29,237 nucleotides of DNA from sequence record NC_028943.1; one strand, written 5' to 3'. The notes beneath the pieces are model-generated. The model was not told where the DNA came from. It saw only the letters and a list, made by a program, of their open reading frames with translations, and did not search any database. Origin of the DNA: Escherichia phage pro483. The translations under genes and the position numbers were made by a program. Positions within the stretch are counted from its first letter, which is position 1, and every line of letters begins with the position of its first letter. Below, piece by piece: positions 1 to 29,237 of the stretch.

Positions 1-13
1 ACCAATAACTGAC
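1..13. repeat. attL: Left copy of terminal direct repeat (putative attL core), accaataactgac
   Basis: Exact 13-bp match to 29225..29237; lies about 90 bp beyond the 3' end of int, as expected for P2-type attL. The repeat may be longer but is cut by the window edge. Confidence 0.6.
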
Positions 14-103
14 TTGGTAGCCCCCGCCGTAGCGGTATTTTCTGTTGTATTACAATTAGTTAAATTACTCATATCGCTTCAATTGGCTCTAGTTAACTCT
101 GGT

Positions 104-1099
104 TTATGGACGCATTATGGACATTCCTGACACCGGGTTAAGAGTCACAGCATCTTGTAAGAAATCCGGTGCAAAGTGTGCGTAGGTCATAGTTTGCTGA
201 ATGTTAGAATGACCCAGGATGCGCTGCAATGTGATTATGTTACCTCCATTCATTATAAAATGTGTGGCAAATGTATGCCTCAAAACATGTACTGCTTGTC
301 CGTCAGGTAAATCGGGTTTTACTTCCCTGAGAGCGTTACGCACTTTGTAGTAACTGGCATTAAAAAGCCTGCCTGAATTTTTGGTCTTGATCCGTTTAAT
401 CAGGTCCTGCGAAACGGGAATTGTCCTGCGTTTTCCGTTTTTAGTTTTCATAAACGTAACCATCTGGTTAATGATGTGTTCAGCTTTTAAATTAGACACT
501 TCACTCCAGCGTCCACCAGTAGAAAGGCAGACCAGAGTTGCATTTAATTCATCACCATCAAGCATGGATAACAGCCGCGTAATCTCTTCACTGGACAAAA
601 AAGCCATTTCCGTAACAGCTTCACGTAACCGTTTAATCTCACGGAACGGGTTGTGAGAGTGGTATTCACCGGCGTCAATTAACTTGGTGAACATCCCGCT
701 CATTATTGCCAGATGTCGATTTACGCTGGCTGGTTTCAGACCATCGTTCATCATTACAACGCGATAATCAGTTATCGTTTTCTTTGTTAGCTGGTCAGCT
801 CTGGACACTCCCATTTCTGCAAATTTGGCGATTATTGTCGTTAAACGCCCCCGTTCAATATCTCCACGCTCATGTGATTTTCCGTGATATATCCACCATC
901 TGCCTAACAACTCTGTAAGAGTTCGGCGGTCGGCTGGTTTCTCCAACCACTCTTTGTTGTGGTAGTTAACCAGTACATGACGTTCGAATGCTTGAGCTTC
1001 ACCTTTAGTTTTAAATTTCCGCCTGATACGTTTTCCATCTGCACCCTGCGGTCTGACGTCCACTTCATAACGACCATCATCGAGCTTTTTAATAGACAT
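104..1099 (-). CDS. int: Tyrosine-type site-specific integrase (P2 Int-like)
   Basis: 331-aa ORF; C-terminal catalytic region HxxR...Y (VLRHTFATHF...GHSNIQQTMTYAHF) typical of tyrosine recombinases; adjacent to the att repeat and co-oriented with the repressor as in P2. Confidence 0.93.
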   Translation of the reverse strand: MSIKKLDDGRYEVDVRPQGADGKRIRRKFKTKGEAQAFERHVLVNYHNKEWLEKPADRRTLTELLGRWWIYHGKSHERGDIERGRLTTIIAKFAEMGVSRADQLTKKTITDYRVVMMNDGLKPASVNRHLAIMSGMFTKLIDAGEYHSHNPFREIKRLREAVTEMAFLSSEEITRLLSMLDGDELNATLVCLSTGGRWSEVSNLKAEHIINQMVTFMKTKNGKRRTIPVSQDLIKRIKTKNSGRLFNASYYKVRNALREVKPDLPDGQAVHVLRHTFATHFIMNGGNIITLQRILGHSNIQQTMTYAHFAPDFLQDAVTLNPVSGMSIMRP

Positions 1100-1192
1100 A
1101 AAGCCCTCCGATGACGCTGTTTACTTCTACTACTTGAAAATTAATGCAATTTTCTTTCGTACATTTACTACACACATATGCTGAATAAATCG

Positions 1193-1492
1193 TCAGCCAG
1201 TCTTCTGGTCTGAGTGGTGCAAGGTTGTTGAGTCTTGCCCAATGTGTGCGAGAGCCGGGGCTATTTGTCCAGCTGCTGGATCTGTTTCATCAAACATGAA
1301 CCAGTCACGATACTTGCGAAAGCGTGGATGCTTAAACAGCTTCATACCTGCTTCCATAGGCATTTTTGATTTTCCTGATTCATATCCATGATATGTGTAG
1401 TAATTAATTCCAATCAATTCAGCAAGTTCCTTAGTTTTAAGGCGTTCGGATTCACGGATGAGCTTTAGTTTCTCACTTTGTTCACTTGACAT
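1193..1492 (-). CDS. C: Immunity repressor, P2 C-type (HTH)
   Basis: 99 aa from ATG at 1492 (the ORF track extends it from a TTG at 1510); C-terminal ...GQIAPALAHIGQD...HSDQKTG closely resembles my memory of P2 C; divergent from cox. Confidence 0.85.
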   Translation of the reverse strand: MSSEQSEKLKLIRESERLKTKELAELIGINYYTYHGYESGKSKMPMEAGMKLFKHPRFRKYRDWFMFDETDPAAGQIAPALAHIGQDSTTLHHSDQKTG

Positions 1493-1585
1493 AATTTTGC
1501 TAATCTCCAATTATATTGTTACTTGGCAATTTGTGATTCGCTCAAAAAGGCTCTAGATGGCTCCAGTTGGTGAATCGCAAATCTT
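1493..1585. promoter_or_regulatory. C/cox divergent switch region (putative Pc/Pe promoters and operator)
   Basis: 93-bp intergenic region between divergent repressor and cox; imperfect dyad ATTTGTGATTCGC (1529-1541) / GTGAATCGCAAAT (1570-1582); candidate rightward promoter TTGTGA (1531-1536) - 17 bp - TAGATG (1554-1559). Confidence 0.45.
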
Positions 1586-1957
1586 ATGGAGGATAGCAAA
1601 GTGACGACAAATGTAGAAATTTCTTGTCCAACTAGCGATGAGGCAAGTTTCGAAAATGAAGCCAAACGTAAAAGCATTCAGATTTCAGAGCGCCCATCTG
1701 ATTTGCTGTCGAAAGAAGGTTTTGCTCTTTACATCGGTAAGACACCACGCGCGGTGGCTGAAATGGCTAAAGCAGGAAAGCTGCCAGCCTTCTACATGAC
1801 AGACCCATTAAAACCAAGAGGGAAAGCTGAATTATGGATTAATCGCCGTGAGTGGGACAAGTACGCAGCCCAGCTAGTTGATGAAGCTCCGACAGAATGG
1901 CATGACTGGAAAAATCGCATTAGTTACAGCAAATCAAGACATGGCCGTGCGGCTTAA
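1586..1957 (+). CDS. cox: Cox-like excisionase / switch regulator, with N-terminal extension (start uncertain: ATG 1586 or GTG 1601)
   Basis: Core FALYIGKTPRAVAEMAKAGKLPAFYMTDP aligns with the remembered P2 Cox HTH region; GGAGGA at 1588-1593 favours GTG 1601; about 40 extra N-terminal residues relative to P2 Cox. Confidence 0.7.
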   Translation: MEDSKVTTNVEISCPTSDEASFENEAKRKSIQISERPSDLLSKEGFALYIGKTPRAVAEMAKAGKLPAFYMTDPLKPRGKAELWINRREWDKYAAQLVDEAPTEWHDWKNRISYSKSRHGRAA

Positions 1958-1967
1958 GGTGGAAAGG

Positions 1968-2138
1968 ATGAACGAGCCTCGTTGTATTGCTCAGTTATTG
2001 CGTAACGAAAGCCCCAGGGCGATTGAGTTCACCATCACCCACGGTAAGGGGCGTAAGGGAATCATTATCCGCACCAAAAAACAGAGTCCGTTAAAGAAGG
2101 CTCTGACCTTTCTGAAAAGCCGGAGGGTCTGGAAATGA
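1968..2138 (+). CDS. Small basic hypothetical protein (occupies the P2 orf78 position)
   Basis: 56 aa from ATG 1968 preceded by AAGGTGGAAAGG; sits between cox and B; lysine/arginine-rich C-terminus. Confidence 0.5.
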   Translation: MNEPRCIAQLLRNESPRAIEFTITHGKGRKGIIIRTKKQSPLKKALTFLKSRRVWK

Positions 2139-2635
2139 CAGTGATGACGCTTAATCTCGTTGAAAAACAGCCAGCAGCTATGCGCCGGATAATTGGTAAG
2201 CATCTTGCCGTCCCTCGCTGGCAGGAGACATGCGATTATTATAATCAGATGATGGTACGCGAACGGCTAACGGTTTGCTTCCATGCGCAGTTAAAACAGC
2301 GTCACGCAACGATGCGTTTTGAAGAAATGAATGATGTCGAACGTGAACGACTGGTATGTGCAATTGATGAATTGCGTGGGGCATTCTCAAAACGCCGTCA
2401 GGTTGGCGCAAGTGAGTATGCATATATTAGTTTTTTAACAGTCAGTCAGCGTCGTACTTTATTTATGCATGCCGGATTGACTGAAAAAGAATTCAACCAG
2501 CCATACTGGCGAATTAATGAAGAATCATGTTACTGGCGTGATGCTTTATTCCGTGCATTACGTGAATTATTCAGCCTGTTTGAGTATGCACCGACAATTC
2601 TGACGTCGGTAAAACCAGAGCAATATCTGCATTAA
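2135..2635 (+). CDS. B: Replication protein B (P2 gpB, helicase-loader-like)
   Basis: 166 aa; N-terminus MTVMTLNLVEKQPAAMRRIIGKHLAVPRWQ... matches my memory of P2 B nearly residue for residue. Confidence 0.9.
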   Translation: MTVMTLNLVEKQPAAMRRIIGKHLAVPRWQETCDYYNQMMVRERLTVCFHAQLKQRHATMRFEEMNDVERERLVCAIDELRGAFSKRRQVGASEYAYISFLTVSQRRTLFMHAGLTEKEFNQPYWRINEESCYWRDALFRALRELFSLFEYAPTILTSVKPEQYLH

Positions 2636-2698
2636 GTAATTAACCAGAGTTTTTAACGCACTTAATTGTGCGGGGCTTCTTTTTGCCTGGAGAAAGTC

Positions 2699-2923
2699 AT
2701 GCATACAGTTTCTGAAAATCAGTGCGGTAAATACGCATTACTGCTGCAACAGGCCAGAACCGAAGCACAGGCCGACGCAGCGACGCGCTTTTCTTCTCAT
2801 CTTGACGCCATGGTTCGCCACATCACAAAGGCGGAGTTATCCCGCGTGGAGATAGTCGAGCTGCTCAGTCAGGAGTCGGAAAAATTTCACAATATCGGAT
2901 TGTCTCGCGGGGAGGTGCTTTGA
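2699..2923 (+). CDS. Hypothetical protein (P2 orf80 position)
   Basis: ATG 2699 with GGAGAAAG Shine-Dalgarno; the ORF track starts it at an upstream TTG; conserved position in the early operon. Confidence 0.6.
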
Positions 2924-3225
2924 TGTCCTGTTCTCGTTCAGTTGTATTACTGAATAACGCCTTAAAAATCGCCGTTATGAGAAATGGCGATTTATCTCTT
3001 ATTCAACTTGGTCTTGATAAAGAAAAACGCGAAATAACTGAGTCTGTTATCGCGATTTATCAGAACGAATTAAATCTCCTGTCTGATGTGGTCAATTTAC
3101 TTGTTAAACGCGCTGTATTTCACAAGCAAATCTCCTCCGTGGATGAACTGACGAAATTAACGACAGAAATTGCCAGCTATTGCGCTGATGAATTTAAAAA
3201 ACTTAACGACAAAAGGAGCTGGTAA
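2920..3225 (+). CDS. Hypothetical protein (P2 orf81 position)
   Basis: 101-aa ORF, start overlaps the upstream stop (ATGA) consistent with translational coupling. Confidence 0.6.
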
Positions 3226-3449
3226 TGCCGGACAACGTAGATTTTATTCAGGAACAACAGGCTGAATTACTGGAGCGCCAGATTAACGCGGCAAGGGTAA
3301 AGCATTGCGGTGTTTCTGCGCTGGTTTGCGAAGAGTGTGACGCGCCAATACCTGCTGCCCGTCGTGCGGCTTATCCGTCAGCCACGCGTTGTGTTTCCTG
3401 CCAGTCAGTCTTTGAAGCAAAAAACAAACATTACCGGAGAACGTCATGA
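3225..3449 (+). CDS. TraR/DksA-family C4 zinc-finger protein (P2 orf82 position)
   Basis: 74 aa with CxxC...CxxC (CEECDAP...CVSCQ) near the C-terminus, typical of TraR/DksA-like zinc fingers. Confidence 0.7.
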   Translation: MPDNVDFIQEQQAELLERQINAARVKHCGVSALVCEECDAPIPAARRAAYPSATRCVSCQSVFEAKNKHYRRTS

Positions 3450-3721
3450 GTATTCGTATTGAAATTGGCGAACGTTATGTCGTTACCAGTGACAGCTTTC
3501 AGTTTATTCTCCACGAGAAAAAGAGAGCTGAAAGCGGTAAAAACGCCGGTCAGGAATGGCTGGCGGTGGTTGGTTATTACCCGAAATTAGGCCAGCTCGT
3601 TTCCGGCCTGATGCATCACGATATTCTGACCGGAAGCGCAAAATCTTTTGCTGATTTAAACGCGCAGGTTGAGCAACTCAGCAAGCGTTGTTCAGAGGCT
3701 TTTGGCTCATATGGCCGTTAA
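3446..3721 (+). CDS. Hypothetical protein (P2 orf83 position)
   Basis: 91-aa ORF overlapping the upstream stop and the gene A start. Confidence 0.6.
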   Translation: MSIRIEIGERYVVTSDSFQFILHEKKRAESGKNAGQEWLAVVGYYPKLGQLVSGLMHHDILTGSAKSFADLNAQVEQLSKRCSEAFGSYGR

Positions 3722-5882
3722 AGCCTCCGGGCGTTTTGTCCCTCCGTCAGCATTTACCGCAGGCACCGGTAAGGCGTTTACCGGTGCTTATGCATGGAAC
3801 GCGCCACGCGAGGCTGTCGGGCGCGAAAGACCTCTTACACGTGACGAGATGCGTCAGGTGCAAGGTGTTTTATCCACGATTAACCGCCTGCCTTACTTTT
3901 TGCGCTCGCTGTTTACTTCACGCTATGACTACATCCGGCGCAATAAAAGCCCGGTGCACGGGTTTTATTTCCTCACATCTACTTTTCAGCGTCGTTTATG
4001 GCCGCGCATTGAGCGTGTGAATCAGCGCCATGAAATGAACACCGACGCGTCGTTGCTGTTTCTGGCAGAGCGTGACCACTATGCGCGCCTGCCGGGAATG
4101 AATGACAAGGAGCTGAAAAAGTTTGCCGCCCGTATCTCATCGCAGCTTTTCATGATGTATGAGGAACTCTGCGATGCATGGGTTGATGCGCATGGTGAAA
4201 AAGAATCGCTGTTTACGGATGAGGCGCAGGCTCACCTGTATGGTCATGTTGCTGGCGCTGCACGTGCTTTCAATATTTCCCCGCTCTACTGGAAAAAATA
4301 CCGTAAAGGACAGATGACCACGAGGCAGGCATATTCTGCCATTGCCCGTCTGTTTAACGATGAGTGGTGGACTCATCAGCTTAAAGGCCAGCGTATGCGC
4401 TGGCATGAAGCGTTACTGATAGCTGTCGGGGAGGTCAATAAAGACCGTTCTCCTTATGCCAGTAAACACGCCATTCGTGATGTGCGTGCGCGCCGCCAGG
4501 CAAATCTGGAATTTCTTAAATCGTGTGACCTTGAAAACAGGGAAACCGGCGAGCGCATCGACCTTATCAGTAAGGTGATGGGCAGTATTTCTAATCCTGA
4601 AATTCGCCGGATGGAGCTGATGAACACCATTGCCGGTATTGAGCGTTACGCCGCTGCAGAGGGTGATGTGGGGATGTTTATCACGCTGACCGCGCCGTCA
4701 AAGTATCACCCGACACGTCAGGTAGGAAAAGGCGAAAGTAAAACCGTGCAGCTTAATCACGGCTGGAACGATGAGGCATTTAATCCAAAGGATGCGCAGC
4801 GTTATCTCTGCCGTATCTGGAGCCTGATGCGCACGGCATTCAAGGATAATGATTTACAGGTCTACGGTTTGCGTGTCGTCGAGCCACACCACGACGGAAC
4901 GCCGCACTGGCATATGATGCTTTTTTGTAATTCACGCCAGCGTAACCAGATTATCGAAATCATGCGTCGCTATGCGCTCAAAGAGGATGGCGACGAAAGA
5001 GGAGCCGCGCGAAACCGTTTTCAGGCAAAACACCTTAACCGGGGCGGTGCTGCGGGATATATCGCGAAATACATTTCAAAAAACATCGACGGCTATGCAC
5101 TGGATGGTCAGCTCGATAACGACACCGGCAGGCCGCTGAAAGACACTGCAGCGGCTGTTACCGCATGGGCGTCAACGTGGCGCATCCCGCAATTTAAAAC
5201 GGTTGGCCTGCCGACAATGGGGGCTTACCGTGAACTACGCAAATTGCCGCGCGGCGTCAGCATTGCTGATGAGTTTGACGAGCGCGTCGAGGCTGCACGC
5301 GCCGCCGCAGACAGTGGTGATTTTGCGTTGTATATCAGCGCGCAGGGTGGGGCAAATGTCCCGCGCGATTGTCAGACTGTCAGAGTCGCCCGTAGCCCGT
5401 CGGATGAAGTTAACGAGTACGAGGAAGAAGTCGAGAGAGTGGTCGGCATTTACGCGCCGCATCTCGGCGCGCGTCATATTCATATCACCAGAACGACGGA
5501 CTGGCGCATTGTTCCGAAAGTGCCGGTCGTTGAGCCTTTGACTTTAAAAAGCGGCATCGCCGCGCCTCGGAGTCCTGTCAATAACTGTGGAAAGTTCACC
5601 GGCGGTGACGTTCCGGTTATGCACCCTACACCGTCTGAGCATGCCGCAGCGGTGTTAAATCTGGTTGATAGTGGTGTTATCGGATGGGATGACCCGGAAG
5701 TTGTGACGGTGCTCAGGAGTGCATTAAAACATGGTGCACCGAGACCGAATTGGCAACAAAGAAACTGCGAACCATTAAAACCGTACCAGATAGCGCCATC
5801 AGGGCGGATGACAAAGGCTGAACGTTCGCAGATTCCACGCATCCATTTCGAGCTGGCACTAATTGGTAAAACCTATCAATAG
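3711..5882 (+). CDS. A: Replication initiation endonuclease A (rolling-circle nickase, P2 gpA)
   Basis: Start taken at ATG 3711 (MAVKASGRFVPP..., matching the remembered P2 A N-terminus); 723 aa, against about 761 aa remembered for P2 A; the 3' end abuts the AT-rich cargo. Confidence 0.9.
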   Translation: MAVKASGRFVPPSAFTAGTGKAFTGAYAWNAPREAVGRERPLTRDEMRQVQGVLSTINRLPYFLRSLFTSRYDYIRRNKSPVHGFYFLTSTFQRRLWPRIERVNQRHEMNTDASLLFLAERDHYARLPGMNDKELKKFAARISSQLFMMYEELCDAWVDAHGEKESLFTDEAQAHLYGHVAGAARAFNISPLYWKKYRKGQMTTRQAYSAIARLFNDEWWTHQLKGQRMRWHEALLIAVGEVNKDRSPYASKHAIRDVRARRQANLEFLKSCDLENRETGERIDLISKVMGSISNPEIRRMELMNTIAGIERYAAAEGDVGMFITLTAPSKYHPTRQVGKGESKTVQLNHGWNDEAFNPKDAQRYLCRIWSLMRTAFKDNDLQVYGLRVVEPHHDGTPHWHMMLFCNSRQRNQIIEIMRRYALKEDGDERGAARNRFQAKHLNRGGAAGYIAKYISKNIDGYALDGQLDNDTGRPLKDTAAAVTAWASTWRIPQFKTVGLPTMGAYRELRKLPRGVSIADEFDERVEAARAAADSGDFALYISAQGGANVPRDCQTVRVARSPSDEVNEYEEEVERVVGIYAPHLGARHIHITRTTDWRIVPKVPVVEPLTLKSGIAAPRSPVNNCGKFTGGDVPVMHPTPSEHAAAVLNLVDSGVIGWDDPEVVTVLRSALKHGAPRPNWQQRNCEPLKPYQIAPSGRMTKAERSQIPRIHFELALIGKTYQ

Positions 5883-5985
5883 TGATTTAATGAAATTTCG
5901 GAGTCATAAATATTGTGTATTTAACTAGATGATTGCAATATAAGTGCTTATTATTTATGCGATTATAGCCATAACGGAGCTGAGT

Positions 5986-6915
5986 ATGAGTGTTGCAAGG
6001 CATCATCATTTTTTATCCCAATGTTATTTGAAAGGGTTTACAAGTAATGGGGGGAAAAAATCAAAATTAACTGTAATAGATTTAAAGGAGCGCAAAACCT
6101 TTGAGAGTAATACTCGCAATGTCGGGGGGGTTAGAGATTTCAACCGATTAGAATTGGATGGAGTTGACCCAAACTATCTCGAGAGTTCTCTTGCAGAGTT
6201 TGAAGGCAGTGTCGCTACTCATTTAAGAAAACTTGAGGAGGGGGGCGAGTTTTCAGGCGAAACCAAAGATGTTATTCTGGAGTTTATTTCCTTATTGGCA
6301 ATACGTACGCCTGCTCAGCGAGAACATTTATCATCTCCATTGAAACAAATAGCAAAGTTTATCATGAAATCCTCAGTTAGTTCGGCTGAGCGTTGGGACG
6401 ATTGCAAATTAGCTTATGAGAAAGAAATGGGTGAGTCTTTGCCATATGATCTCGCTTACGAAAAAATTAAAAATTTTGTGGATGGGGATAATTTCGAAAT
6501 CAATGTAATCAGAGAGTTCATGATAGATATGGAAATGAAATGTGTACCTGTTATCACCAAGTTGTTGCATCAACGCAACTGGTCACTTATGACCATATCT
6601 GATGGGCAAGGGTCATTTATAACTTCAGATAACCCAGTTTGCTTAATGTGGACTAATCCTGAATTAGCACGAGGCCCTTATTCCCCCGGGTTTGGTGTAA
6701 AAGACACTTTAGTTTTGTTCCCAGTATCAAAAAACCTTCTTTTGGCGGGCGAGTTTGATGGTCATGAGGGTGTATTCAGTTGTAATGAGGAGCAGGCTGC
6801 GGTCTTCAATACTTCAGTCATTCGGCATACCGCAGAAAGAATATTTTCATCTAATGATAATTTCAAATTTTTAGACTCATCTAAAAAAATGAAGCAAGGC
6901 AAAAGCCTGGTTTGA
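5986..6915 (+). CDS. Cargo gene in the P2 tin/old hotspot: DUF4238-like protein, candidate single-gene anti-phage defence
   Basis: 309 aa from ATG 5986 (GGAG 6 nt upstream); N-terminal HHFLSQCYLKGFT and internal FITSDNPVCLMW resemble the DUF4238 (PF14022) signature from memory; strongly AT-rich against GC-rich flanks; located between A and cos. Confidence 0.75.
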   Translation: MSVARHHHFLSQCYLKGFTSNGGKKSKLTVIDLKERKTFESNTRNVGGVRDFNRLELDGVDPNYLESSLAEFEGSVATHLRKLEEGGEFSGETKDVILEFISLLAIRTPAQREHLSSPLKQIAKFIMKSSVSSAERWDDCKLAYEKEMGESLPYDLAYEKIKNFVDGDNFEINVIREFMIDMEMKCVPVITKLLHQRNWSLMTISDGQGSFITSDNPVCLMWTNPELARGPYSPGFGVKDTLVLFPVSKNLLLAGEFDGHEGVFSCNEEQAAVFNTSVIRHTAERIFSSNDNFKFLDSSKKMKQGKSLV

Positions 6916-7130
6916 TAGCGGTTTTTCTATGATTTTACTAGGAGAATTCTACCCTTAATCAGTGTGTTTAAAATGATTAATTGTCATAACATTTTTTCAT
7001 TTTTAGGTGTGCCTAGAAATGCATTCAATTGCATGCGTTTTCCTCCCCTGTTGCGTCTGAGCGCCACCAGTGCCGGCGCGCCTCCGGTGTATTCGTGCAC
7101 CTGCATTAAAACCGACCCATAAAGCGGGCA

Positions 7131-7149
7131 GGCGAGGCGGGGATAGCAC
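7131..7149. other. cos: cos site (cohesive-end sequence), ggcgaggcggggatagcac
   Basis: One mismatch to the remembered P2 19-nt cohesive end GGCGAGGCGGGGAAAGCAC; correct position between the cargo locus and Q. Confidence 0.7.
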
Positions 7150-7290
7150 TGCGCGCTGGCGGTGGTGCTGATTTTATTTTTTCAGCGTCTGAGCGCGTCG
7201 TGATGGCGTTTAGATTGTTCGCCGGGGCGTTGGTGTGTCTGCGGGATGTTTTGTGCGGTGGTGAGCGTGTGAGGGCGTGATGACAGGGTG

Positions 7291-7312
7291 TAAAAAGCCG
7301 CCCGCAGGCGGC
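7291..7312 (-). terminator. Rho-independent terminator downstream of Q (minus strand)
   Basis: GCCGCC-cgca-GGCGGC hairpin (7297-7312) followed on the minus strand by a T-run (complement of AAAAA 7292-7296), immediately after the Q stop. Confidence 0.6.
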
Positions 7313-7317
7313 GATGT

Positions 7318-8352
7318 TCAGCCGTTGTCAGTGTCCAGTGAGTAGTTTTTAAAGCGGATGACCTCCTGACCGAGCCAGCCGTTTATTTCCCGAATCCTGT
7401 CCTGTAACGGGATAAGCTCATTGCGGACAAAGACCTTTGCCACTTTCTCAATATCACCCAGCGACCCGACGTTCTCCGGCTTGCCGCCCATCAACTGAAA
7501 GGGGATGCGGTGCGCGTCCAGCAGGTCAGCGGCGCTGGCTTTTTTGATATTAAAAAAATCGTCCTTCGTTGCCACTTCACTGAGCGGGATAATTTTAATG
7601 CCGTCGGCTTTCCCCTGCGGGGCATAGAGAAACAGATTTTTAAAGTTGTTGCGGCCTTTCGACTTGACCATGTTTTCGCGAAGCATTTCGATATCGTTGC
7701 GATCCTGCACGGCATCGGTGACGTACATGATATATCCGGCATGAGCGCCGTTTTCGTAATACTTGCGGCGGAACAGCGTGGCCGACTCATTCAGCCAGGC
7801 AGAATTAAGGGCGCTGAGATATTCCGGCAGGCCGTACAGCTCCTGATTAATATCCGGCTCCAGCAGGTGAAACACGGAGCCGGGCGCGAAGGCTGTCGGC
7901 TCGTTGAAGGACGGCACCCACCAGTAAACATCCTCCTCCACGCCACGGCGGGTATATTTTGCCGGTGAGGTTTCCAGTCTGATGACCTTACCGGTGGTGC
8001 TGTAACGCTTTTCCAGAAACGCATTACCGAACACCAGAAAATCCAGCACAAAGCGGCTGAAATCCTGCTGGGAAAGCCACGGGTGCGGAATAAACGTTGA
8101 AGCCAGAATATTACGTTTGACGTAAATCGGTGAGCTGTGATGTACGGCAGCACGCAGGCTTTTTGCCAGACCGGTAAAGCTGACCGGTGGCTCATACCAT
8201 CTGCCGTTACTGATGCACTCGACGTAATCCAGAATGTCACGGCGGTCGAGTACCGGCACCGGTTCACCAAAGGTGAATGCCTCCATTTTCGGGGCGCTGG
8301 CGGTCATTTTTTTTGCCGCAGGTTGCGGTGTTTTCCCTTTTTTCTTGCTCAT
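7318..8352 (-). CDS. Q: Portal protein (P2 gpQ)
   Basis: 344 aa; position and orientation as P2 Q; start overlaps the P stop (ATGA). Confidence 0.93.
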   Translation of the reverse strand: MSKKKGKTPQPAAKKMTASAPKMEAFTFGEPVPVLDRRDILDYVECISNGRWYEPPVSFTGLAKSLRAAVHHSSPIYVKRNILASTFIPHPWLSQQDFSRFVLDFLVFGNAFLEKRYSTTGKVIRLETSPAKYTRRGVEEDVYWWVPSFNEPTAFAPGSVFHLLEPDINQELYGLPEYLSALNSAWLNESATLFRRKYYENGAHAGYIMYVTDAVQDRNDIEMLRENMVKSKGRNNFKNLFLYAPQGKADGIKIIPLSEVATKDDFFNIKKASAADLLDAHRIPFQLMGGKPENVGSLGDIEKVAKVFVRNELIPLQDRIREINGWLGQEVIRFKNYSLDTDNG

Positions 8353-10124
8353 CAGTAAAACTCCAGAATGGTGGATGTCAGCGGGGTGCTGATACCGGCG
8401 GTGAGTGGCTCATTTAACAGGGCGTGCATGGTCGCCCAGGCGAGGTCGGCGTGGCTGGCTTCCTCGCTGCGGCTGGCCTCATAGGTGGCGCTGCGTCCGC
8501 TGCTGGTCATGGTCTTGCGGATAGCCATAAACGAGCTGGTGATGTCGGTGGCGCTGACGTCATATTCCAGACAGCCACGGCGAATAACGTCTTTTGCCTT
8601 GAGCACCATTGCGGTTTTCATTTCCGGCGTGTAGCGGATATCGCGTGCGGCGGGATAGAACGAGCGAACGAGCTGGAACACGCCGACACCGAGGCCGGTG
8701 GCATCAATTCCGATGTATTCGACGTTGTATTTTTCGGTGAGTTTGCGGATGGATTCAGCCTGGGTGGCAAAGTCCATGCCTTTCCACTGGTGACGCTCAA
8801 GTATTCTGAATTTGCCACCGGCCACCACCGGCGGTGCCAGCACCACGCATCCGGCACTGTCGCCACGGTGTGACGGGTCGTAACCAATCCAGACCGGGCG
8901 GGAGCCGAACGGATTCGCGGCAAACGGCGCATAGTCTTCCCATTCTTCCAGCGTGTCGACCATGCAGCGTTGCAGCTCCTCGAACGGGAACACCGACGCC
9001 TTGTCGTCAACAAATTCACACATGAACAGGTTTTTAAAATCGTCGGCGCTGTTTTCGCGTTTAAGCTGCTCAATGTCGAACAGCGTGCAGCCACCTTTCA
9101 GGGCGTCCTCAATGGTGACAATCTGCCGCCACTGACCGTCCGCACAGAGAAGCCCACCGGCAAGAGCGTTATGACTGACGTCGATTTCCACGCGTTCGGC
9201 GGCGCTGGCGCGTCCCCGGTTGAACAGTTCACCCGACCAGAACGGGTAGGCGTCGTGCGCCAGCGTGGACGGGGTGGAGAAATAGGTCGAGCGCAGGTGA
9301 CTCTGTGAGGCCATACCTGATGCCACCTTACGCAGTACCTGAAAATTCGGTATCCAGAAAATCTCGTCGACGTACAGGTCGCCGTTATGGCTCTGCGCGG
9401 TGTTGGAGTTGGTGCCGAGAAAAATCAGTTTTGCGCCGTTATTGCCCAGGACAATCGGGTCACCGGTCAGGTCAACGTCAACCAGCCGGGCAAAGGCGAT
9501 GATGTATTCGCGGAACACATACGCCTGCGTTTTACTGGCCGACAGAAAAATCTGGTTATGACCGGTTTTCAGGGCGCGCAGCAGCGCCTCGCGGGAAAAA
9601 TAAAACGTCGCGCCAATCTGGCGGGATTTCAGGATATCGCGGATGCGGTGCTCAAGCCCGGCGCGATACCAGTGCAACTGATATTCGAAAGACTGCTCAA
9701 AGAAAATCTGCTCCAGCTTTTCGATAGCCTCGTCACTGAAAAAATTCTTTTTCGGTTTGCGCCGCCCGCCTTTGTTGCGGTTAGCGATGTTCGGATTAAG
9801 GTCTGCCTCGTTGCCGGTCTGGCTGTAGCGGTTTACCCGTGCCAGTCGTTCAATCTGGCGTCCGAGCAGGTCAATTTCCTTGAAGTCACCGCCGGTTTTC
9901 TGCGGTTTGATGATGAGCTGGGTCAGCCGCGCTTCCAGACTCATTTCGACACGGCTGATGGGGGCAACGCTGTCCCAGCCGTCGCGCTGTTTCCAGCTCT
10001 GCACCGTCGGGCGTTTCATCTGCAACATGGCGGCAATCTGCGGCACGGAAAACCCCTGCCAGTACAGCAGCGCCGCCTGCCGACGCGGGTCGTGTAAAAG
10101 AGTGGTGTCTGTGGTGATGGTCAT
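8352..10124 (-). CDS. P: Terminase large subunit, ATPase (P2 gpP)
   Basis: 590 aa from ATG at 10124 (MTITTDTTLLHD...; the ORF track starts at an upstream TTG); large minus-strand ORF paired with the portal gene. Confidence 0.9.
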   Translation of the reverse strand: MTITTDTTLLHDPRRQAALLYWQGFSVPQIAAMLQMKRPTVQSWKQRDGWDSVAPISRVEMSLEARLTQLIIKPQKTGGDFKEIDLLGRQIERLARVNRYSQTGNEADLNPNIANRNKGGRRKPKKNFFSDEAIEKLEQIFFEQSFEYQLHWYRAGLEHRIRDILKSRQIGATFYFSREALLRALKTGHNQIFLSASKTQAYVFREYIIAFARLVDVDLTGDPIVLGNNGAKLIFLGTNSNTAQSHNGDLYVDEIFWIPNFQVLRKVASGMASQSHLRSTYFSTPSTLAHDAYPFWSGELFNRGRASAAERVEIDVSHNALAGGLLCADGQWRQIVTIEDALKGGCTLFDIEQLKRENSADDFKNLFMCEFVDDKASVFPFEELQRCMVDTLEEWEDYAPFAANPFGSRPVWIGYDPSHRGDSAGCVVLAPPVVAGGKFRILERHQWKGMDFATQAESIRKLTEKYNVEYIGIDATGLGVGVFQLVRSFYPAARDIRYTPEMKTAMVLKAKDVIRRGCLEYDVSATDITSSFMAIRKTMTSSGRSATYEASRSEEASHADLAWATMHALLNEPLTAGISTPLTSTILEFY

Positions 10125-10297: not shown

Positions 10298-11152
10298 ATG
10301 GCAAAAAAAGTCTCAAAATTCTTTCGTATCGGCGTTGAGGGTGACACCTGTGACGGGCGTGTCATCAGTGCGCAGGATATTCAGGAAATGGCCGAAACCT
10401 TTGACCCGCGAGTCTATGGTTGCCGCATTAACCTGGAACATCTGCGCGGCGTCCTGCCTGACGGTATTTTTAAGCGTTATGGCGATGTGGTCGAACTGAA
10501 GGCCGAAAAGATTGACGATGATTCGGCGCTGAAAGGCAAATGGGCGCTGTTTGCGAAAATCACCCCGACCGATGACCTTATCGCGATGAACAAGGCCGCG
10601 CAGAAGGTCTATACCTCAATGGAAATTCAGCCGAACTTTGCCAATACCGGCAAATGTTATCTGGTGGGTCTGGCCGTCACCGATGACCCGGCAAGCCTCG
10701 GCACGGAATACCTGGAATTCTGCCGCACGGCAAAACACAACCCCCTGAACCGCTTCAAATTAAGCCCTGAAAACCTGATTTCAGTGGCAACGCCCGTTGA
10801 GCTGGAATTTGAAGACCTGCCTGAAACCGTGTTCACCGCCCTGACCGAAAAGGTGAAGTCCATTTTTGGCCGCAAACAGGCCAGCGATGACGCCCGTCTG
10901 AATGACGTGCATGAAGCGGTGACCGCTGTTGCTGAACATGTGCAGGAAAAACTGAGCGCCACTGAGCAGCGCCTCGCTGAGATGGAAACCGCTTTTTCCG
11001 CACTTAAGCAGGATGTGACTGACAGGGCGGATGAAACCAGCCAGGCATTCACCCGCCTGAAAAACAGTCTCGACCACACCGAAAGTCTGACCCAGCAGCG
11101 CCGCAGCAAGGCCACCGGTGGTGGCGGTGACGCCCTGATGACGAACTGCTGA
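10298..11152 (+). CDS. O: Capsid scaffolding protein (P2 gpO)
   Basis: 284 aa from ATG 10298 (MAKKVSKFFRIG...); same length as P2 O; precedes the major capsid gene. Confidence 0.9.
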   Translation: MAKKVSKFFRIGVEGDTCDGRVISAQDIQEMAETFDPRVYGCRINLEHLRGVLPDGIFKRYGDVVELKAEKIDDDSALKGKWALFAKITPTDDLIAMNKAAQKVYTSMEIQPNFANTGKCYLVGLAVTDDPASLGTEYLEFCRTAKHNPLNRFKLSPENLISVATPVELEFEDLPETVFTALTEKVKSIFGRKQASDDARLNDVHEAVTAVAEHVQEKLSATEQRLAEMETAFSALKQDVTDRADETSQAFTRLKNSLDHTESLTQQRRSKATGGGGDALMTNC

Positions 11153-11210
11153 CCGGCGTCAGTCAGTCCGGGAAAACCTTCACGATTAACCCTTAATTTC
11201 AGGAAAAACT

Positions 11211-12284
11211 ATGCGCCAGGAAACCCGCTTTAAATTTAATGCTTACCTGTCCCGTGTTGCCGAACTGAACGGCATCGACGCCGGTGATGTGTCGAAAAAA
11301 TTCACCGTTGAACCGTCGGTCACCCAGACCCTGATGAACACCATGCAGGAGTCCTCTGACTTTCTGACCCGCATCAACATTGTGCCGGTCAGCGAAATGA
11401 AAGGGGAAAAAATTGGCATCGGTGTCACCGGCTCCATCGCCAGCACCACCGACACCGCCGGTGGCACCGAGCGCCAGCCGAAGGATTTTTCGAAGCTGGC
11501 GTCCAGTAAGTACGAATGCGACCAGATTAACTTCGATTTTTATATCCGCTACAAAACGCTGGACCTGTGGGCGCGTTATCAGGATTTCCAGCTCCGTATC
11601 CGTAACGCCATTATCAAACGTCAGTCCCTTGATTTAATCATGGCCGGTTTTAACGGCGTGAAGCGTGCCGAAACCTCTGACCGCAGCAGCAATCCGATGC
11701 TGCAGGATGTGGCGGTCGGCTGGCTGCAGAAATACCGCAATGAAGCCCCGGCGCGCGTGATGAGCAAGGTCACTGACGAGGAAGGCCGCACGACCTCTGA
11801 GGTTATCCGCGTGGGTAAGGGCGGTGATTATGCCAGCCTCGATGCACTGGTGATGGATGCAACCAACAACCTGATTGAACCGTGGTATCAGGAAGACCCT
11901 GACCTTGTGGTGATTGTGGGACGTCAGCTACTGGCGGACAAGTATTTCCCCATCGTTAACAAGGAGCAGGACAACAGCGAGATGCTGGCCGCTGACGTCA
12001 TTATCAGCCAGAAACGCATCGGCAACCTGCCGGCGGTACGCGTCCCGTACTTCCCGGCGGATGCGATGCTCATCACGAAGCTGGAAAACCTGTCCATCTA
12101 CTACATGGATGACAGCCATCGCCGCGTGATTGAGGAAAACCCGAAACTCGACCGCGTGGAGAACTACGAGTCAATGAACATTGATTACGTGGTGGAAGAC
12201 TACGCCGCCGGTTGTCTGGTGGAAAAAATTAAGGTCGGTGATTTCTCCACCCCGGCTAAGGCGACCGCAGAGCCGGGAGCGTAA
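11211..12284 (+). CDS. N: Major capsid protein (P2 gpN)
   Basis: 357 aa, same as P2 N; position after the scaffold gene. Confidence 0.93.
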   Translation: MRQETRFKFNAYLSRVAELNGIDAGDVSKKFTVEPSVTQTLMNTMQESSDFLTRINIVPVSEMKGEKIGIGVTGSIASTTDTAGGTERQPKDFSKLASSKYECDQINFDFYIRYKTLDLWARYQDFQLRIRNAIIKRQSLDLIMAGFNGVKRAETSDRSSNPMLQDVAVGWLQKYRNEAPARVMSKVTDEEGRTTSEVIRVGKGGDYASLDALVMDATNNLIEPWYQEDPDLVVIVGRQLLADKYFPIVNKEQDNSEMLAADVIISQKRIGNLPAVRVPYFPADAMLITKLENLSIYYMDDSHRRVIEENPKLDRVENYESMNIDYVVEDYAAGCLVEKIKVGDFSTPAKATAEPGA

Positions 12285-12287
12285 CCG

Positions 12288-13031
12288 ATGACGAGTCCCG
12301 CACAGCGCCACATGATGCGGGTCTCGGCAGCGATGACCGCGCAGCGGGAAGCCGCCCCGCTGCGACATGCAACTGTCTATGAGCAGATGCTGGTCAAGCT
12401 GGCCGCAGACCAGCGCACACTGAAAGCAATTTACTCAAAAGAGCTGAAGGCCGCGAAAAAACGCGAACTGCTGCCGTTCTGGTTGCCGTGGGTGAACGGC
12501 GTGCTGGAGCAGGGCAAAGGTGCACAGGATGACATTCTGATGACGGTCATGCTGTGGCGTCTGGATACCGGCGATATTGCCGGTGCGCTGGAGATTGCCC
12601 GTTATGCCCTGAAGTACGGTCTGACCATGCCGGGTAAACACCGCCGCACCCCGCCGTACATGTTCACCGAGGAGGTGGCGCTCGCGGCCATGCGCGCCCA
12701 CGCTGCCGGTGAGTCTGTGGATCCCCGCCTGCTGACGGAGACCCTCGAACTGACCGCCACGGCTGACATGCCTGATGAAGTGCGCGCAAAGCTGCACAAA
12801 ATCACCGGTCTGTTTCTGCGTGACGGTGGTGATGCCGCCGGTGCGCTGGCTCACCTGCAACGTGCGACACAGCTCGACTGTCAGGCAGGCGTCAAAAAAG
12901 AGATTGAACGACTGGAGCGGGAGCTGAAACCGAAGCCGGAGCCGCAACCCAAAGCGGCCACCCGTGCCACGCGTAAGACCCGGAGCGTGACACCGGCAAA
13001 ACGTGGACGCCCGAAAAAGAAAGCCAGTTAA
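12288..13031 (+). CDS. M: Terminase small / endonuclease subunit (P2 gpM)
   Basis: 247 aa, same as P2 M; lysine/proline-rich basic C-terminal tail. Confidence 0.88.
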   Translation: MTSPAQRHMMRVSAAMTAQREAAPLRHATVYEQMLVKLAADQRTLKAIYSKELKAAKKRELLPFWLPWVNGVLEQGKGAQDDILMTVMLWRLDTGDIAGALEIARYALKYGLTMPGKHRRTPPYMFTEEVALAAMRAHAAGESVDPRLLTETLELTATADMPDEVRAKLHKITGLFLRDGGDAAGALAHLQRATQLDCQAGVKKEIERLERELKPKPEPQPKAATRATRKTRSVTPAKRGRPKKKAS

Positions 13032-13130
13032 CAACCGAATGCGCCCCGCGCCAGGGCGGCACGCCGGTCAGTGAGGGTGAATCACCTGACACTACACCGG
13101 CGTCCACCGCCCGACTTTTCAGAGGTAGTC

Positions 13131-13640
13131 ATGATGACGCTGATTATTCCGCGAAAGGAGGCTCCCGTGTCCGGTGAGGGTACGGTGGTCATCCCGCAAC
13201 CGGCAGGCGACGAGCCGGTGATTAAAAACACGTTCTTTTTTCCCGATATCGACCCGAAGCGCGTCCGGGAACGTATGCGCCTTGAGCAGACCGTCGCCCC
13301 CGCCCGTCTGCGTGAGGCCATCAAGTCAGGCATGGCTGAAACGAATGCGGAGCTGTACGAGTACCGCGAACAGAAAATTGCTGCCGGTTTTACGCGTCTG
13401 GCGGACGTCCCGGCGGACGACATCGACGGTGAAAGCATCAAAGTTTTTTACTACGAGCGCGCCGTGTGTGCGATGGCGACCGCGTCGCTTTATGAACGTT
13501 ATCGCGGTGTGGATGCCAGTGCGAAAGGCGACAAGAAGGCCGACAGCATTGACAGCACCATTGATGAGCTGTGGCGGGATATGCGCTGGGCAGTGGCGCG
13601 CATCCAGGGCAAGCCGCGCTGCATCGTGAGTCAAATCTGA
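13131..13640 (+). CDS. L: Head completion/stabilisation protein (P2 gpL)
   Basis: 169 aa from ATG 13131 with AGAGGTAG Shine-Dalgarno (the ORF track starts earlier); matches P2 L length. Confidence 0.85.
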   Translation: MMTLIIPRKEAPVSGEGTVVIPQPAGDEPVIKNTFFFPDIDPKRVRERMRLEQTVAPARLREAIKSGMAETNAELYEYREQKIAAGFTRLADVPADDIDGESIKVFYYERAVCAMATASLYERYRGVDASAKGDKKADSIDSTIDELWRDMRWAVARIQGKPRCIVSQI

Positions 13641-13843
13641 TGAAGACCTTTGCGCTACAGGGCGACACGCTCGACGCCATTTGTGTCCGGTATTACGGGC
13701 GCACTGAGGGCGTGGTTGAGACCGTGCTCGCCGCAAATCCGGGACTGGCTGAACTGGGTGCGGTGCTGCCACACGGCACCGCCGTCGAACTGCCCGACGT
13801 TCAGACCGCGCCCGTGGCTGAAACTGTCAATCTGTGGGAGTAA
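13640..13843 (+). CDS. X: Tail protein X (P2 gpX)
   Basis: 67 aa from ATG 13640 overlapping the L stop (ATGA); MKTFALQGDTLDAICVRYYG... Confidence 0.8.
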   Translation: MKTFALQGDTLDAICVRYYGRTEGVVETVLAANPGLAELGAVLPHGTAVELPDVQTAPVAETVNLWE

Positions 13844-13846
13844 CGC

Positions 13847-14128
13847 ATGACAGCAGAAGAAAAAAGCGTCCTGTCGCTTTTCATGATTGGGGTGCTGATT
13901 GTTGTCGGCAAGGTGCTTGCCGGTGGTGAACCCATCACCCCGCGTCTGTTTATCGGGCGCATGTTGCTCGGTGGTTTTGTCTCGATGGTTGCCGGTGTTG
14001 TTCTGGTGCAGTTTCCTGACCTGTCACTGCCTGCGGTGTGCGGTATCGGCTCCATGCTGGGTATCGCCGGTTATCAGGTGATTGAGATTGCCATTCAGCG
14101 CCGCTTTAAGGGCAGGGGGAAACCGTAA
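13847..14128 (+). CDS. Y: Holin (P2 gpY)
   Basis: 93 aa with hydrophobic transmembrane stretches and a charged C-terminus; first gene of the lysis cassette. Confidence 0.85.
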   Translation: MTAEEKSVLSLFMIGVLIVVGKVLAGGEPITPRLFIGRMLLGGFVSMVAGVVLVQFPDLSLPAVCGIGSMLGIAGYQVIEIAIQRRFKGRGKP

Positions 14129-14625
14129 TGCCGGTTATTAACACGCATCAGAATATCGCCGCCTTTCTCGACATGCTGGCCGTGTCCGAAGGGACGGCGA
14201 ATCATCCGCTGACGAAAAACCGGGGCTATGACGTGATAGTCACCGGACTGGACGGGAAGCCGGAAATTTTCACCGACTACAGTGACCACCCGTTCGCACA
14301 TGGCCGACCGGCGAAGGTGTTTAACCGTCGCGGTGAAAAATCCACGGCCTCCGGTCGCTATCAGCAGCTTTACCTGTTCTGGCCGCATTACCGCAAACAG
14401 CTTGCCCTGCCGGATTTCAGTCCGTTGTCACAGGACAGACTTGCCATTCAGTTGATCCGCGAACGCGGTGCACTGGATGACATCCGGGCGGGACGCATTG
14501 AGCGAGCCATTTCACGCTGTCGAAATATCTGGGCGTCCCTGCCGGGTGCCGGTTACGGTCAGCGTGAGCATTCACTGGAAAAACTGGTCACCGTCTGGCG
14601 TACCGCTGGCGGCGTACCGGCTTAA
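14128..14625 (+). CDS. K: Endolysin, lysozyme-like (P2 gpK)
   Basis: 165 aa, same as P2 K; follows the holin with ATGA-type overlap. Confidence 0.9.
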   Translation: MPVINTHQNIAAFLDMLAVSEGTANHPLTKNRGYDVIVTGLDGKPEIFTDYSDHPFAHGRPAKVFNRRGEKSTASGRYQQLYLFWPHYRKQLALPDFSPLSQDRLAIQLIRERGALDDIRAGRIERAISRCRNIWASLPGAGYGQREHSLEKLVTVWRTAGGVPA

Positions 14626-14639
14626 ACGGAGTAAACACC

Positions 14640-15065
14640 ATGAAGAAATTATCCCTTTCACTGATGCTGCACGTGTCGCTGGCGCTGATGCTGGCACTGT
14701 CCCTGATTTACCCGCAGAGCGTGGCCGTCAATTTTGTCGCTGCCTGGGCGATTCTGGCGACGGTTATCTGTGTGGTTGCCGGTGGTGTCGGCGTGTATGC
14801 CACTGAGTATGTGCTGGAACGCTACGGGCGGGAGCTGCCGCCGGAATCGCTGGCCGTGAAGATTGTCGCGTCGCTGTTTTTGCAGCCGGTGCCGTGGCGC
14901 AGACGGGCGGCGGCTCTGGTGGTGATGGTGGCGACGTTTATCTCGCTGGTCGCTGCCGGGTGGATTTTTACCGCGCTGATTTACCTCGTGGCGTCGGTGT
15001 TCTTCCGGTTGATACGCACGGCCTGTCGTCAGCGTTTTGAGGGGCGGGAACCATGTCAAAGCTGA
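14640..15065 (+). CDS. lysA: Lysis accessory membrane protein LysA
   Basis: 141 aa, multiple hydrophobic segments; P2 lysA position and length. Confidence 0.8.
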   Translation: MKKLSLSLMLHVSLALMLALSLIYPQSVAVNFVAAWAILATVICVVAGGVGVYATEYVLERYGRELPPESLAVKIVASLFLQPVPWRRRAAALVVMVATFISLVAAGWIFTALIYLVASVFFRLIRTACRQRFEGREPCQS

Positions 15066-18457: not shown

Positions 18458-19061
18458 TTCGCGCCTGCTGCCGACCGGCTCATCACCGCTTGAAGTTGCC
18501 GCCGCAAAAGCCTGTGCGGAAATTGAAAAAACGCCGGTCAGTATTCGTGAGCTGTGGAACCCGGACACCTGCCCGGCAAATCTGCTGCCGTGGCTGGCGT
18601 GGTCATTTTCGGTTGACCGCTGGGATGATAAGTGGCCGGAAGCGACAAAACGCGCTGTTATCCGCGATGCGTATTTCATTCACTGCCATAAGGGCACTAT
18701 TGGTGCGATTCGCCGTGTGGTGGAGCCGCTCGGCTATCTGATTGAGGTGAGGGAGTGGTGGCAGCTCAACGAGGAGCCGGGGACGTTCCGCATCGTTGTT
18801 GGCGTGCTTGAGCAGGGTATTACCGAGGAAATGTATCAGGAGCTGGAGCGTCTCGTTGCTGATGCAAAACCTGCAAGCCGCCATCTGACGGGACTGGCTA
18901 TCAGTTTAAGTACAACCGGCAACATTTTTGCCGGTGCGGGATGCTATCACGGCGACGCCCTGACGGTTTATCCCTACACCCCGGAGGCCATTATTGTCGG
19001 AGGGGATTATTTCCCGGCCTCGGCCATTCATTTAATTGATAACCTGAGAGTAAACGCATGA
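18450..19061 (+). CDS. I: Baseplate / tail protein I
   Basis: 203 aa (P2 I is about 176 aa from memory); overlaps J and H in the operon. Confidence 0.85.
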   Translation: MSDSRLLPTGSSPLEVAAAKACAEIEKTPVSIRELWNPDTCPANLLPWLAWSFSVDRWDDKWPEATKRAVIRDAYFIHCHKGTIGAIRRVVEPLGYLIEVREWWQLNEEPGTFRIVVGVLEQGITEEMYQELERLVADAKPASRHLTGLAISLSTTGNIFAGAGCYHGDALTVYPYTPEAIIVGGDYFPASAIHLIDNLRVNA

Positions 19062-20257: not shown

Positions 20258-20277
20258 TTTTATTCAGGGTGATTTAT

Positions 20278-21786: not shown

Positions 21787-21800
21787 AACGTTTATGAAAA
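21775..21800. repeat. Right crossover site for the DNA invertase, TTCTCCCAAACC-AA-CGTTTATGAAAA
   Basis: Reverse complement TTTTCATAAACG-TT-GGTTTGGGAGAA shares the full right half with the left site; lies 56 bp upstream of the invertase start. Confidence 0.65.
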
Positions 21801-21855
21801 TGCAGAGATAACGGGTAACTGGCATCATCTCCGGTTTTTATTCAGGGGGATGCTC

Positions 21856-28892: not shown

Positions 28893-29111
28893 ATGTTTCA
28901 TTGTCCTTTATGCCAGCATGCCGCACATGCGCGTACAAGCCGCTATATCACTGACACGACAAAAGAGCGTTATCACCAGTGTCAGAACGTGAATTGCAGC
29001 GCCACGTTCATCACTTATGAGTCGGTACAGCGATACATCGTGAAACCGGGAGAAGTCCACGCCGTAAGGCCGCACCCGTTGCCGTCAGGGCAGCAAATTA
29101 TGTGGATGTAA
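28893..29111 (+). CDS. ogr: Late gene transcriptional activator Ogr (zinc-finger)
   Basis: 72 aa from ATG 28893 (MFHCPLCQHAAHARTSRYITD...), matching the remembered P2 Ogr essentially throughout; the ORF track starts at an upstream TTG. Confidence 0.92.
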   Translation: MFHCPLCQHAAHARTSRYITDTTKERYHQCQNVNCSATFITYESVQRYIVKPGEVHAVRPHPLPSGQQIMWM

Positions 29112-29122
29112 TTACAAACAGA

Positions 29123-29149
29123 AAGCCCCTCAGTCGAGGGGCTTTTTTT
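29123..29149 (+). terminator. Rho-independent terminator after ogr
   Basis: GCCCCTC-agtc-GAGGGGC hairpin (29125-29142) followed by TTTTTTT (29143-29149). Confidence 0.85.
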
Positions 29150-29224
29150 GTCGATGTGGTCAATGTGTGGACGTGACCAGAAATAAATCCTTTTATTTCA
29201 TACAATTAGATATCAAAAAATGTC

Positions 29225-29237
29225 ACCAATAACTGAC
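29225..29237. repeat. attR: Right copy of terminal direct repeat (putative attR core), accaataactgac
   Basis: Exact match to positions 1-13. Confidence 0.6.

Follow-up and report, generated by a model that had tools for sequence, protein, structure and literature searches.

The 13-bp terminal repeat of the P2-like prophage pro483 and the phage-supplied leader of pflA

Gene content and attachment region of the prophage

The stretch of DNA analyzed here, 29,237 nucleotides of Escherichia phage pro483 (NC_028943.1; hereafter the window), is a P2-like (Peduovirus) prophage. Its genes are arranged in the order int, C repressor, cox, replication gene A, portal, terminase and capsid genes, lysis genes, baseplate, tail fiber, sheath, tube and tape measure genes, D, and ogr, and no transposase is encoded by the element. 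A reading made from the sequence only had placed int beside the left copy of a terminal 13-bp repeat, and ogr with its terminator beside the right copy; the Pfam matches and a hairpin downstream of ogr bear this out (Table 1). The stop codon of int lies 90 nt from the repeat. Int has the same sequence as that of Peduovirus P24E6b (100% identity), is found at an identity of at least 99% in 18 phage records, shares about 55% identity with P2-type Int, and groups with the P2-type integrases by similarity. Adjoining int are the C repressor, whose match to HTH_19 falls under the curated cutoff and which RefSeq annotates as an HTH regulator, a Cox homolog, and two promoter-like sites facing each other (1486..1537). 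Cox is presumed, by homology, to serve as excision directionality factor and lytic-switch repressor. The hairpin downstream of ogr is rich in G+C and was called as a terminator on the minus strand too, so that it may also stop host transcription entering from attR and thereby insulate the prophage.

Table 1. Features of the attachment region and neighboring genes (window coordinates)
Feature	Position	Strand	Basis or remark
attL core (pflA side)	1..13	none	Repeat scan and host-flank reading
Phage-supplied 20-codon leader MSNLTNCNTTENTATAGATK	13..72	-	In frame with pflA; ATG at 72-70
Pre-ATG stretch, 33 nt, from int stop to leader ATG	73..105	-	Most conserved stretch
int, P2-type tyrosine integrase	104..1099	-	Pfam Int_N (2.4e-22) and Phage_integrase (1.3e-18)
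Arm-type Int sites, int-side arm (P'), predicted	105..123	+	TATGGACG at 105-112, TATGGACA at 116-123
C-type immunity repressor (HTH)	1193..1492	-	Upstream of int, same strand
Promoter-like site facing cox	1486..1514	+	Consensus scan only
Promoter-like site facing C-int	1537..1510	-	Consensus scan only
cox	1586..1957	+	Pfam Phage_Cox, 3e-29
ogr, late-gene activator, Ogr_Delta zinc finger	28893..29111	+	Pfam Ogr_Delta
ogr terminator, hairpin GCCCCTC-AGTC-GAGGGGC, A run and T7 run at its sides	29122..29149	+	Scan
Arm-type Int sites, ogr-side arm (P), predicted	29155..29173	+	TGTGGTCA at 29155-29162, TGTGGACG at 29166-29173
attR core (pflB side)	29225..29237	none	Repeat scan and host-flank reading

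Two further regions of the window caught our attention. A serine invertase gene (Resolvase and HTH_7 domains; 21850-22449) lies beside oppositely oriented cassettes (19058-22449), comprising a tail fiber C terminus with a Collar domain on the minus strand (21295-21828) and tail fiber assembly genes on the plus strand (20269-20721) and the minus strand (20693-21295). Judged by these domains and orientations, the region looks like a candidate Gin/Cin-type invertible host-range switch, which to our knowledge is absent from P2 itself. A DUF4238 protein of 323 amino acids (5944-6915) is encoded in the interval from replication gene A to the portal gene, where P2 has its accessory genes old and tin, and this position suggests that it may be defense or exclusion cargo. 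In some of the other prophages integrated at this site, the interval is filled by different genes, for instance those annotated as "ATP-binding protein" or "ComEC/Rec2 family."

Each phage arm contains a pair of predicted arm-type Int sites in the same orientation and with 11-bp spacing, and the P' pair, which overlaps the int stop codon, is conserved in relatives. All four sites match tgTGGaCa, the published consensus of P2-type arm sites (PMC3448106). This motif is not rare in the window, with 12 matches against 7 expected, and the evidence thus lies in the paired placement and not in the motif as such. The ogr-side arm is common to P2-like phages with different integrases (P22H4, 9W, P22H1, and P24C9) up to 29201-29208 and diverges from there on, so that homology ends 17 to 24 bp before the core and the ogr-side arm sites are common to phages with different site specificities. 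From this comparison, positions 29201-29208 mark the module boundary of the att/int cassette, and the shared-arm pattern fits an Int whose arm-binding domain is conserved while its core-binding domain varies. The IHF consensus WATCAANNNNTTR, with one mismatch allowed, was found in neither arm, a consensus scan being a weak test in so AT-rich an arm. A dyad-symmetry scan for the overlap region gave no center consistent between attP and attB (best score, 5 to 6 of 8).

The 13-bp core and the four att forms

The 13-mer ACCAATAACTGAC occurs on the same strand at both ends of the window, as the sequence-only reading had claimed, and no third copy exists in the window even with up to two mismatches. 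Since the window was cut on the repeat, its terminal position is uninformative by itself, and the test was made outside the window. In the chromosome of Escherichia coli GPEC1210 (L146), the order is focA-pflB-[13-mer]-ogrK...int-[13-mer]-pflA. A 35.5-kb region of this chromosome contains exactly two co-oriented copies of ACCAATAACTGAC, spaced 29,960 bp apart, whereas two copies were obtained in 0 of 100 shuffles. Generally in E. coli genomes, the left end adjoins pflA and the right end adjoins pflB. Inspection of the host flanks, which had been proposed as a check, showed that both copies lie in chromosomes with host DNA outside and that the repeat is not an artifact of window extraction.

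In window orientation, attL with its host flank reads ...GTGAATGCG|ACCAATAACTGAC|TTGGTAGC... and attR with its host flank ...AAAATGTC|ACCAATAACTGAC|ATTGCGGTG... (vertical strokes delimit the core). The sequences mismatch immediately on either side of the 13-mer, and perfect identity therefore extends over exactly 13 bp; a perfect core of more than 13 bp, which had been thought possible because the window ends at the repeat, is ruled out. Two bases further out, on the pflA/ogr side, the four bases AATG match again, which brings the agreement to 17 of 19 positions.

All four att forms were found in sequences outside the window. An attB query, assembled from the attL host flank, a single core, and the attR host flank, was matched with 100% identity over 813 bp, and attB is intact in 5,014 of 5,426 complete E. 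coli genomes. With a query joining the right window end, the core, and the left window end, contiguous attP (ogr-core-int) was detected at 97 to 99% identity in 15 phage genome records, among which are wastewater isolates and P2-like phages plating on Yersinia, and contiguous attP was also present in a 32.3-kb IMG/VR contig (L022). Among the complete E. coli genomes, 405 contain the attL junction, in every case at the identical nucleotide, and 393 contain the attR junction; in about 7.5% of these genomes the prophage is inserted and the body of pflA is intact. The identical core is common to attL, attR, attB, and attP, and all four forms fit one reciprocal crossover, which supports the earlier proposal that the repeats are attL and attR of an integrated P2-like phage. 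Free phage DNA contains this 13-mer too, which excludes a target duplication of the transposon type and shows the recombination to be site specific and based on homology.

A copy identical to the window was not found among the complete E. coli genomes, where the best match covers 96% of it at 97.4% identity. In Escherichia albertii NBRC 107761 (L005), an Int with 100% identity is encoded at the same junction with pflA. The EP91A prophage is about 4 kb longer than the window. In E24377A (L002, 1-2355), a closely related prophage carries istA and istB of the IS21-family element ISEc62 within its tape measure gene and is defective because of this interruption.

MG1655, which lacks a prophage here, has a single copy of the 13-mer (NC_000913.3, 951066-951078). 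Position 950293 in an older version of the MG1655 sequence, which we take to be shifted by about 777 bp, corresponds to about 951070 and falls inside the core. Given this offset, the core agrees in position with the integration site listed for PhiD145 and PhiD160 at MG1655 950293 (Table 1 in Nilsson et al. 2011, PMC3448106), where the Pectobacterium prophage ECA29 is grouped with the PhiD145 site. The integration site is thus already known, its equation with that of PhiD145 resting on the coordinate and the offset.

A lead on the crossover position comes from a single 2.3-kb metagenome contig (L119, region 1-700), in which the E. coli-type int-side arm, after ...AAGTCAGT, is joined to an Rz-like lysis gene of a lambdoid prophage. 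This junction suggests a secondary-site integration into another prophage. The unoccupied counterpart (L144, 1441-1560) reads GCATGTCAGTAATAGTGG and shares with attP at the switch point GTCAGT alone, which suggests that strand exchange might take place within the GTCAGT(T) part of the core, window positions 7/8 to 13, although this contig provides only a lead.

The start of pflA in lysogens and in Salmonella

The reverse complement of the core, G TCA GTT ATT GGT, consists of the last base of the pflA start codon and codons 2 to 5 (MSVIG). This location in the pflA coding sequence, at the start codon, was missed by the sequence-only reading. Integration separates pflA from the promoter, ribosome-binding site, and start codon that it normally uses. 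At attL, AAG now stands where the native ATG was. The native pflA promoter region stays at attR, about 29 kb away, together with the ribosome-binding site (GGAG) and the first two bases (AT) of the start codon, and these now head an orphan open reading frame of eight codons, MSVIGDIF followed by a stop (L001, 4420-4640). Transcription from the native pflA promoter at attR would run antisense into ogr.

In place of the lost start, the phage arm contributes a leader of 20 codons. Its ATG follows the int stop codon by 31 nt, its last codon, AAG, replaces the native ATG, and its fusion to pflA is annotated in RefSeq as a PflA of 265 amino acids. The 33 nt between the int stop and the leader ATG are presumed, from their conservation and position, to be the translation initiation region, and the Shine-Dalgarno match ahead of the ATG is poor (GAAG). 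A scan detected no terminator-like structure between the int stop and the core. By analogy with P2, the most plausible source of leader-pflA transcripts is read-through from the prophage's C-int operon. A candidate phage promoter in the 3' end of int (TTAACC-16-CATAAT, 141..114) was not relied on, its -10 element being poorly conserved: it reads CAGAAT in Scandinavium, and in Salmonella no equivalent is predicted at that position.

The Int relatives from Scandinavium, Pseudescherichia, and Rahnella, 76 to 80% identical, are all encoded directly upstream of pflA, and their leaders have the same length and frame as in E. coli. Further lineages came from leader-pattern scans of viral and metagenome contigs, from which three viral-contig matches and most metagenome matches were discarded as unrelated genes. 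In all eight diverged lineages, with Int identity down to 76%, the leader has 20 codons, no indels, and its ATG. The pflA frame is free of stop codons in the eight lineages, whereas each other frame has one to five, and an ATG at the native position is retained in the Rahnella type only. By chance, a leader frame would be open with a probability of about 0.13 to 0.27 per sequence and would stay open with one of about 0.6 per lineage. The contrast in pN/pS between frame 0 (0.57) and frame 2 (0.68) is small. As proof of coding on its own, the open frame is thus statistically weak, and the absence of indels could also reflect a spacing constraint on attP. The argument for coding rests instead on a fossil of the leader in Salmonella, described below.

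In the lineages detected by Int homology (the E. coli, Scandinavium, Pseudescherichia, and Rahnella types; window 13-35, minus strand; L006-L011), a G-rich run resembling a Shine-Dalgarno sequence (GGGGG, AGGAG, or AGAGG) lies 6 to 9 nt ahead of the codon standing in for the native ATG. Since this codon is still ATG in the Rahnella type, the ancestral design may have been a ribosome-binding site combined with the native ATG. Another possibility is that the run belongs to a core-type Int binding site.

Three Salmonella metagenome contigs (L072, about 6000-8430; L096, about 11040-14704; L122, about 1-3820) contain the leader fused to pflA without a prophage. The order is pflB, sopD2 on the opposite strand, a truncated 3' end of int, leader, and pflA. 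The identity of sopD2 is based on NCBIfam equivalog matches of 725 and 610 bits. The int remnant comprises about 230 to 250 bp, is 70% identical to window positions 39-286, and has decayed by an in-frame stop codon and frame-breaking deletions; the distal arm site has decayed as well. The 265-amino-acid leader-PflA is a "MULTISPECIES [Salmonella]" protein found in at least 1,000 contigs, and a second variant is found in 820 contigs. In Salmonella, AAG or AAT occupies the position of the native start codon, and the leader ATG is therefore the sole in-frame ATG, GTG, or TTG before the Fe-S cysteine motif.

Divergence between two Salmonella lineages was measured against the third codon positions of pflA as a near-neutral yardstick. 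Nucleotide differences amount to 18.8% at these positions, 20.7% in the int remnant, 11.7% in the 60 nt of the leader, and 3.0% (97% identity) in the 33 nt ahead of the leader ATG. With no phage functions remaining, the 3% difference implies strong purifying selection on the leader start region. The leader peptide itself seems only loosely constrained, with 5 of 20 residues differing versus 5 of 245 in the PflA body. Such a divergence pattern is expected if the region provides the translation start of pflA together with a tolerated N-terminal extension. Salmonella is a fermenter producing formate and gas, so that leader-PflA is probably active there, and by the same reasoning lysogens of E. 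coli are probably not null for pflA. Given the gene order, sopD2 may possibly have been brought to the pflA site as cargo by a P2-like phage.

Alternative explanations, related systems, and implications

We consider it very probable that the 13-mers represent the cores of attL and attR in a P2-like prophage integrated at the PhiD145-type site at the start of pflA, with the phage leader compensating for the lost start. Int would bind two arm-type sites per phage arm as well as the core and recombine attP, located between ogr and int, with an attB spanning the G of the pflA start codon through codon 5. Strand exchange must lie within the 13 identical base pairs, and excision would be directed by Cox. 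Integration displaces the native pflA promoter, the ribosome-binding site, and the AT of the start codon by about 29 kb, to attR. The int-side arm would compensate by an in-frame ATG and the 20-codon leader, so that the lysogen would encode the 265-amino-acid PflA, its transcript arising by read-through from the C-int operon. We lean, with less assurance, toward the further view that the int-side attP arm evolved as a gene repair cassette for pflA and was domesticated in Salmonella after decay of the prophage. This view includes the start with its leader, a probable read-through from the immunity operon, and sopD2 as possible phage cargo.

Other origins of the repeat can be weighed against this explanation. 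A chance match or an artifact of window cutting might be suspected, as the window ends exactly on the repeat by construction and 13 bp is short for a core of the P2 family. However, whole chromosomes hold both copies with host DNA outside, the empty sites have one copy, bordered by sequences 100% identical to the outer attL and attR flanks, and free phage carries the joined form; this reading is already refuted, and we give it practically no credence. Duplication of a target site by a transposition-like insertion would likewise predict one copy in the empty site and two around the insert. It is just as implausible, since free phage genomes already have one copy of the 13-mer between ogr and int. 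The element, moreover, has a tyrosine integrase, Cox, and arm-type sites but no transposase, and 405 genomes share the exact nucleotide of insertion. The chances are about even that the 13 bp are the perfectly matching portion of an imperfect functional core of about 20 to 30 bp, as in P2. The AATG two bases out (17 of 19 positions), the frequent imperfection of P2-family cores (PMC3448106), and the CAAT-N7-ATTG symmetry of attB around AACTGAC point to such a core, whereas the dyad scan, with its best score of 5 to 6 of 8, found no center consistent between attP and attB. A longer functional core refines the attachment-site explanation and does not exclude it.

It could also be argued that the prophage inactivates pflA and that the leader is a by-product of an arm conserved for the binding of Int, Cox, or IHF. 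A review describes ECA29 as disrupting pflA (PMC13492144), frame conservation is weakly significant by itself, the Shine-Dalgarno match is weak, a convincing conserved promoter is lacking, and the indel-free spacing is a possible attP constraint. We nevertheless judge inactivation unlikely. The ATG, the 20 codons, and the absence of stops in the pflA frame only are common to eight of eight lineages, and the pflA body is intact beside the insertion in about 7.5% of the complete E. coli genomes. Moreover, in phage-free Salmonella with a decayed int, the start region differs by only 3%, compared with about 19 to 21% for neutral sequence, and the leader ATG is the only in-frame start before the Fe-S cysteine motif.

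The explanation of the repeats as attachment cores of a P2-like prophage can be set beside known systems. P2 (attP/attB locI; Int, IHF, and Cox) resembles the window in the order ogr-attP-int-C-cox, in two direct arm-type repeats per arm, in a Cox homolog, and in face-to-face switch promoters. Unlike P2, the window phage has an Int with about 55% identity to that of P2, a different core and host site, a 13-bp identity block, and no match to the IHF consensus, and it integrates inside a gene, whereas P2 integrates between genes. The P2 core comprises 27 bp and is imperfect. Site-specific recombination of PhiD145 and PhiD160 is reportedly the subject of a study by Mandali et al. from 2010 (Virology 408:64). 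Like the window phage, PhiD145 and PhiD160 have a P2-type Int, a complex attP, and arm repeats of the tgTGGaCa type (PMC3448106), a likeness by reported site and description and not by Int or attP sequence.

ECA29 of Pectobacterium atrosepticum, compared here by description, is likewise P2-like, uses the PhiD145 site, and is integrated in pflA. In the relevant passage of a 2026 review (PMC13492144, citing Evans et al. 2010), it is described as disrupting this gene, whereas our data suggest that the phage group of the window would replace the 5' end instead. Such a replacement has a precedent in dusA-specific integrases and islands, which insert at the 5' end of a coding gene and supply a replacement 5' end, possibly with a promoter (Farrugia et al. 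2015, PMC4482086), and the gene may stay functional. However, these islands belong to an unrelated integrase clade and use another host gene, and their replacement mimics the lost N-terminal beta-strand, whereas the window phage removes only the initiator Met and adds a nonhomologous extension of 19 residues; the resemblance is an analogy, not a family assignment. In phage 186, HP1, and others that integrate in tRNA genes, the attP core duplicates part of the target and the gene survives (PMC3448106). These phages restore a 3' end with identical sequence, whereas the window phage acts at a 5' end and replaces expression signals.

The searchable literature contained nothing relevant on pflA and P2-like phages, nor on sopD2 together with pflA or pflB; a conserved replacement start and its fixation in Salmonella beside sopD2 were not found there and may be described beyond it. 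The call of the prophage boundaries is routine, as the site is known and phages with an identical integrase have already been sequenced. What we add to the known site are the exact 13-bp core, its location at the start of pflA, the conserved start supplied by the phage, and the fixation of this start near sopD2 in Salmonella.

For genome interpretation, this insertion is better not counted among knockouts of pflA, and the 265-amino-acid PflA of RefSeq is a hybrid. If the hybrid PflA is active, lysogeny rewires the control of pflA, and the description of ECA29 as disrupting the gene may need to be revisited. If, moreover, the int-side arm is a gene repair cassette, the activator of a central anaerobic enzyme would be coupled to prophage control. 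The Salmonella fossil offers an evolutionary origin for the longer PflA of Salmonella and for the genomic location of sopD2, and represents a rare instance of an attP arm permanently built into a host gene.
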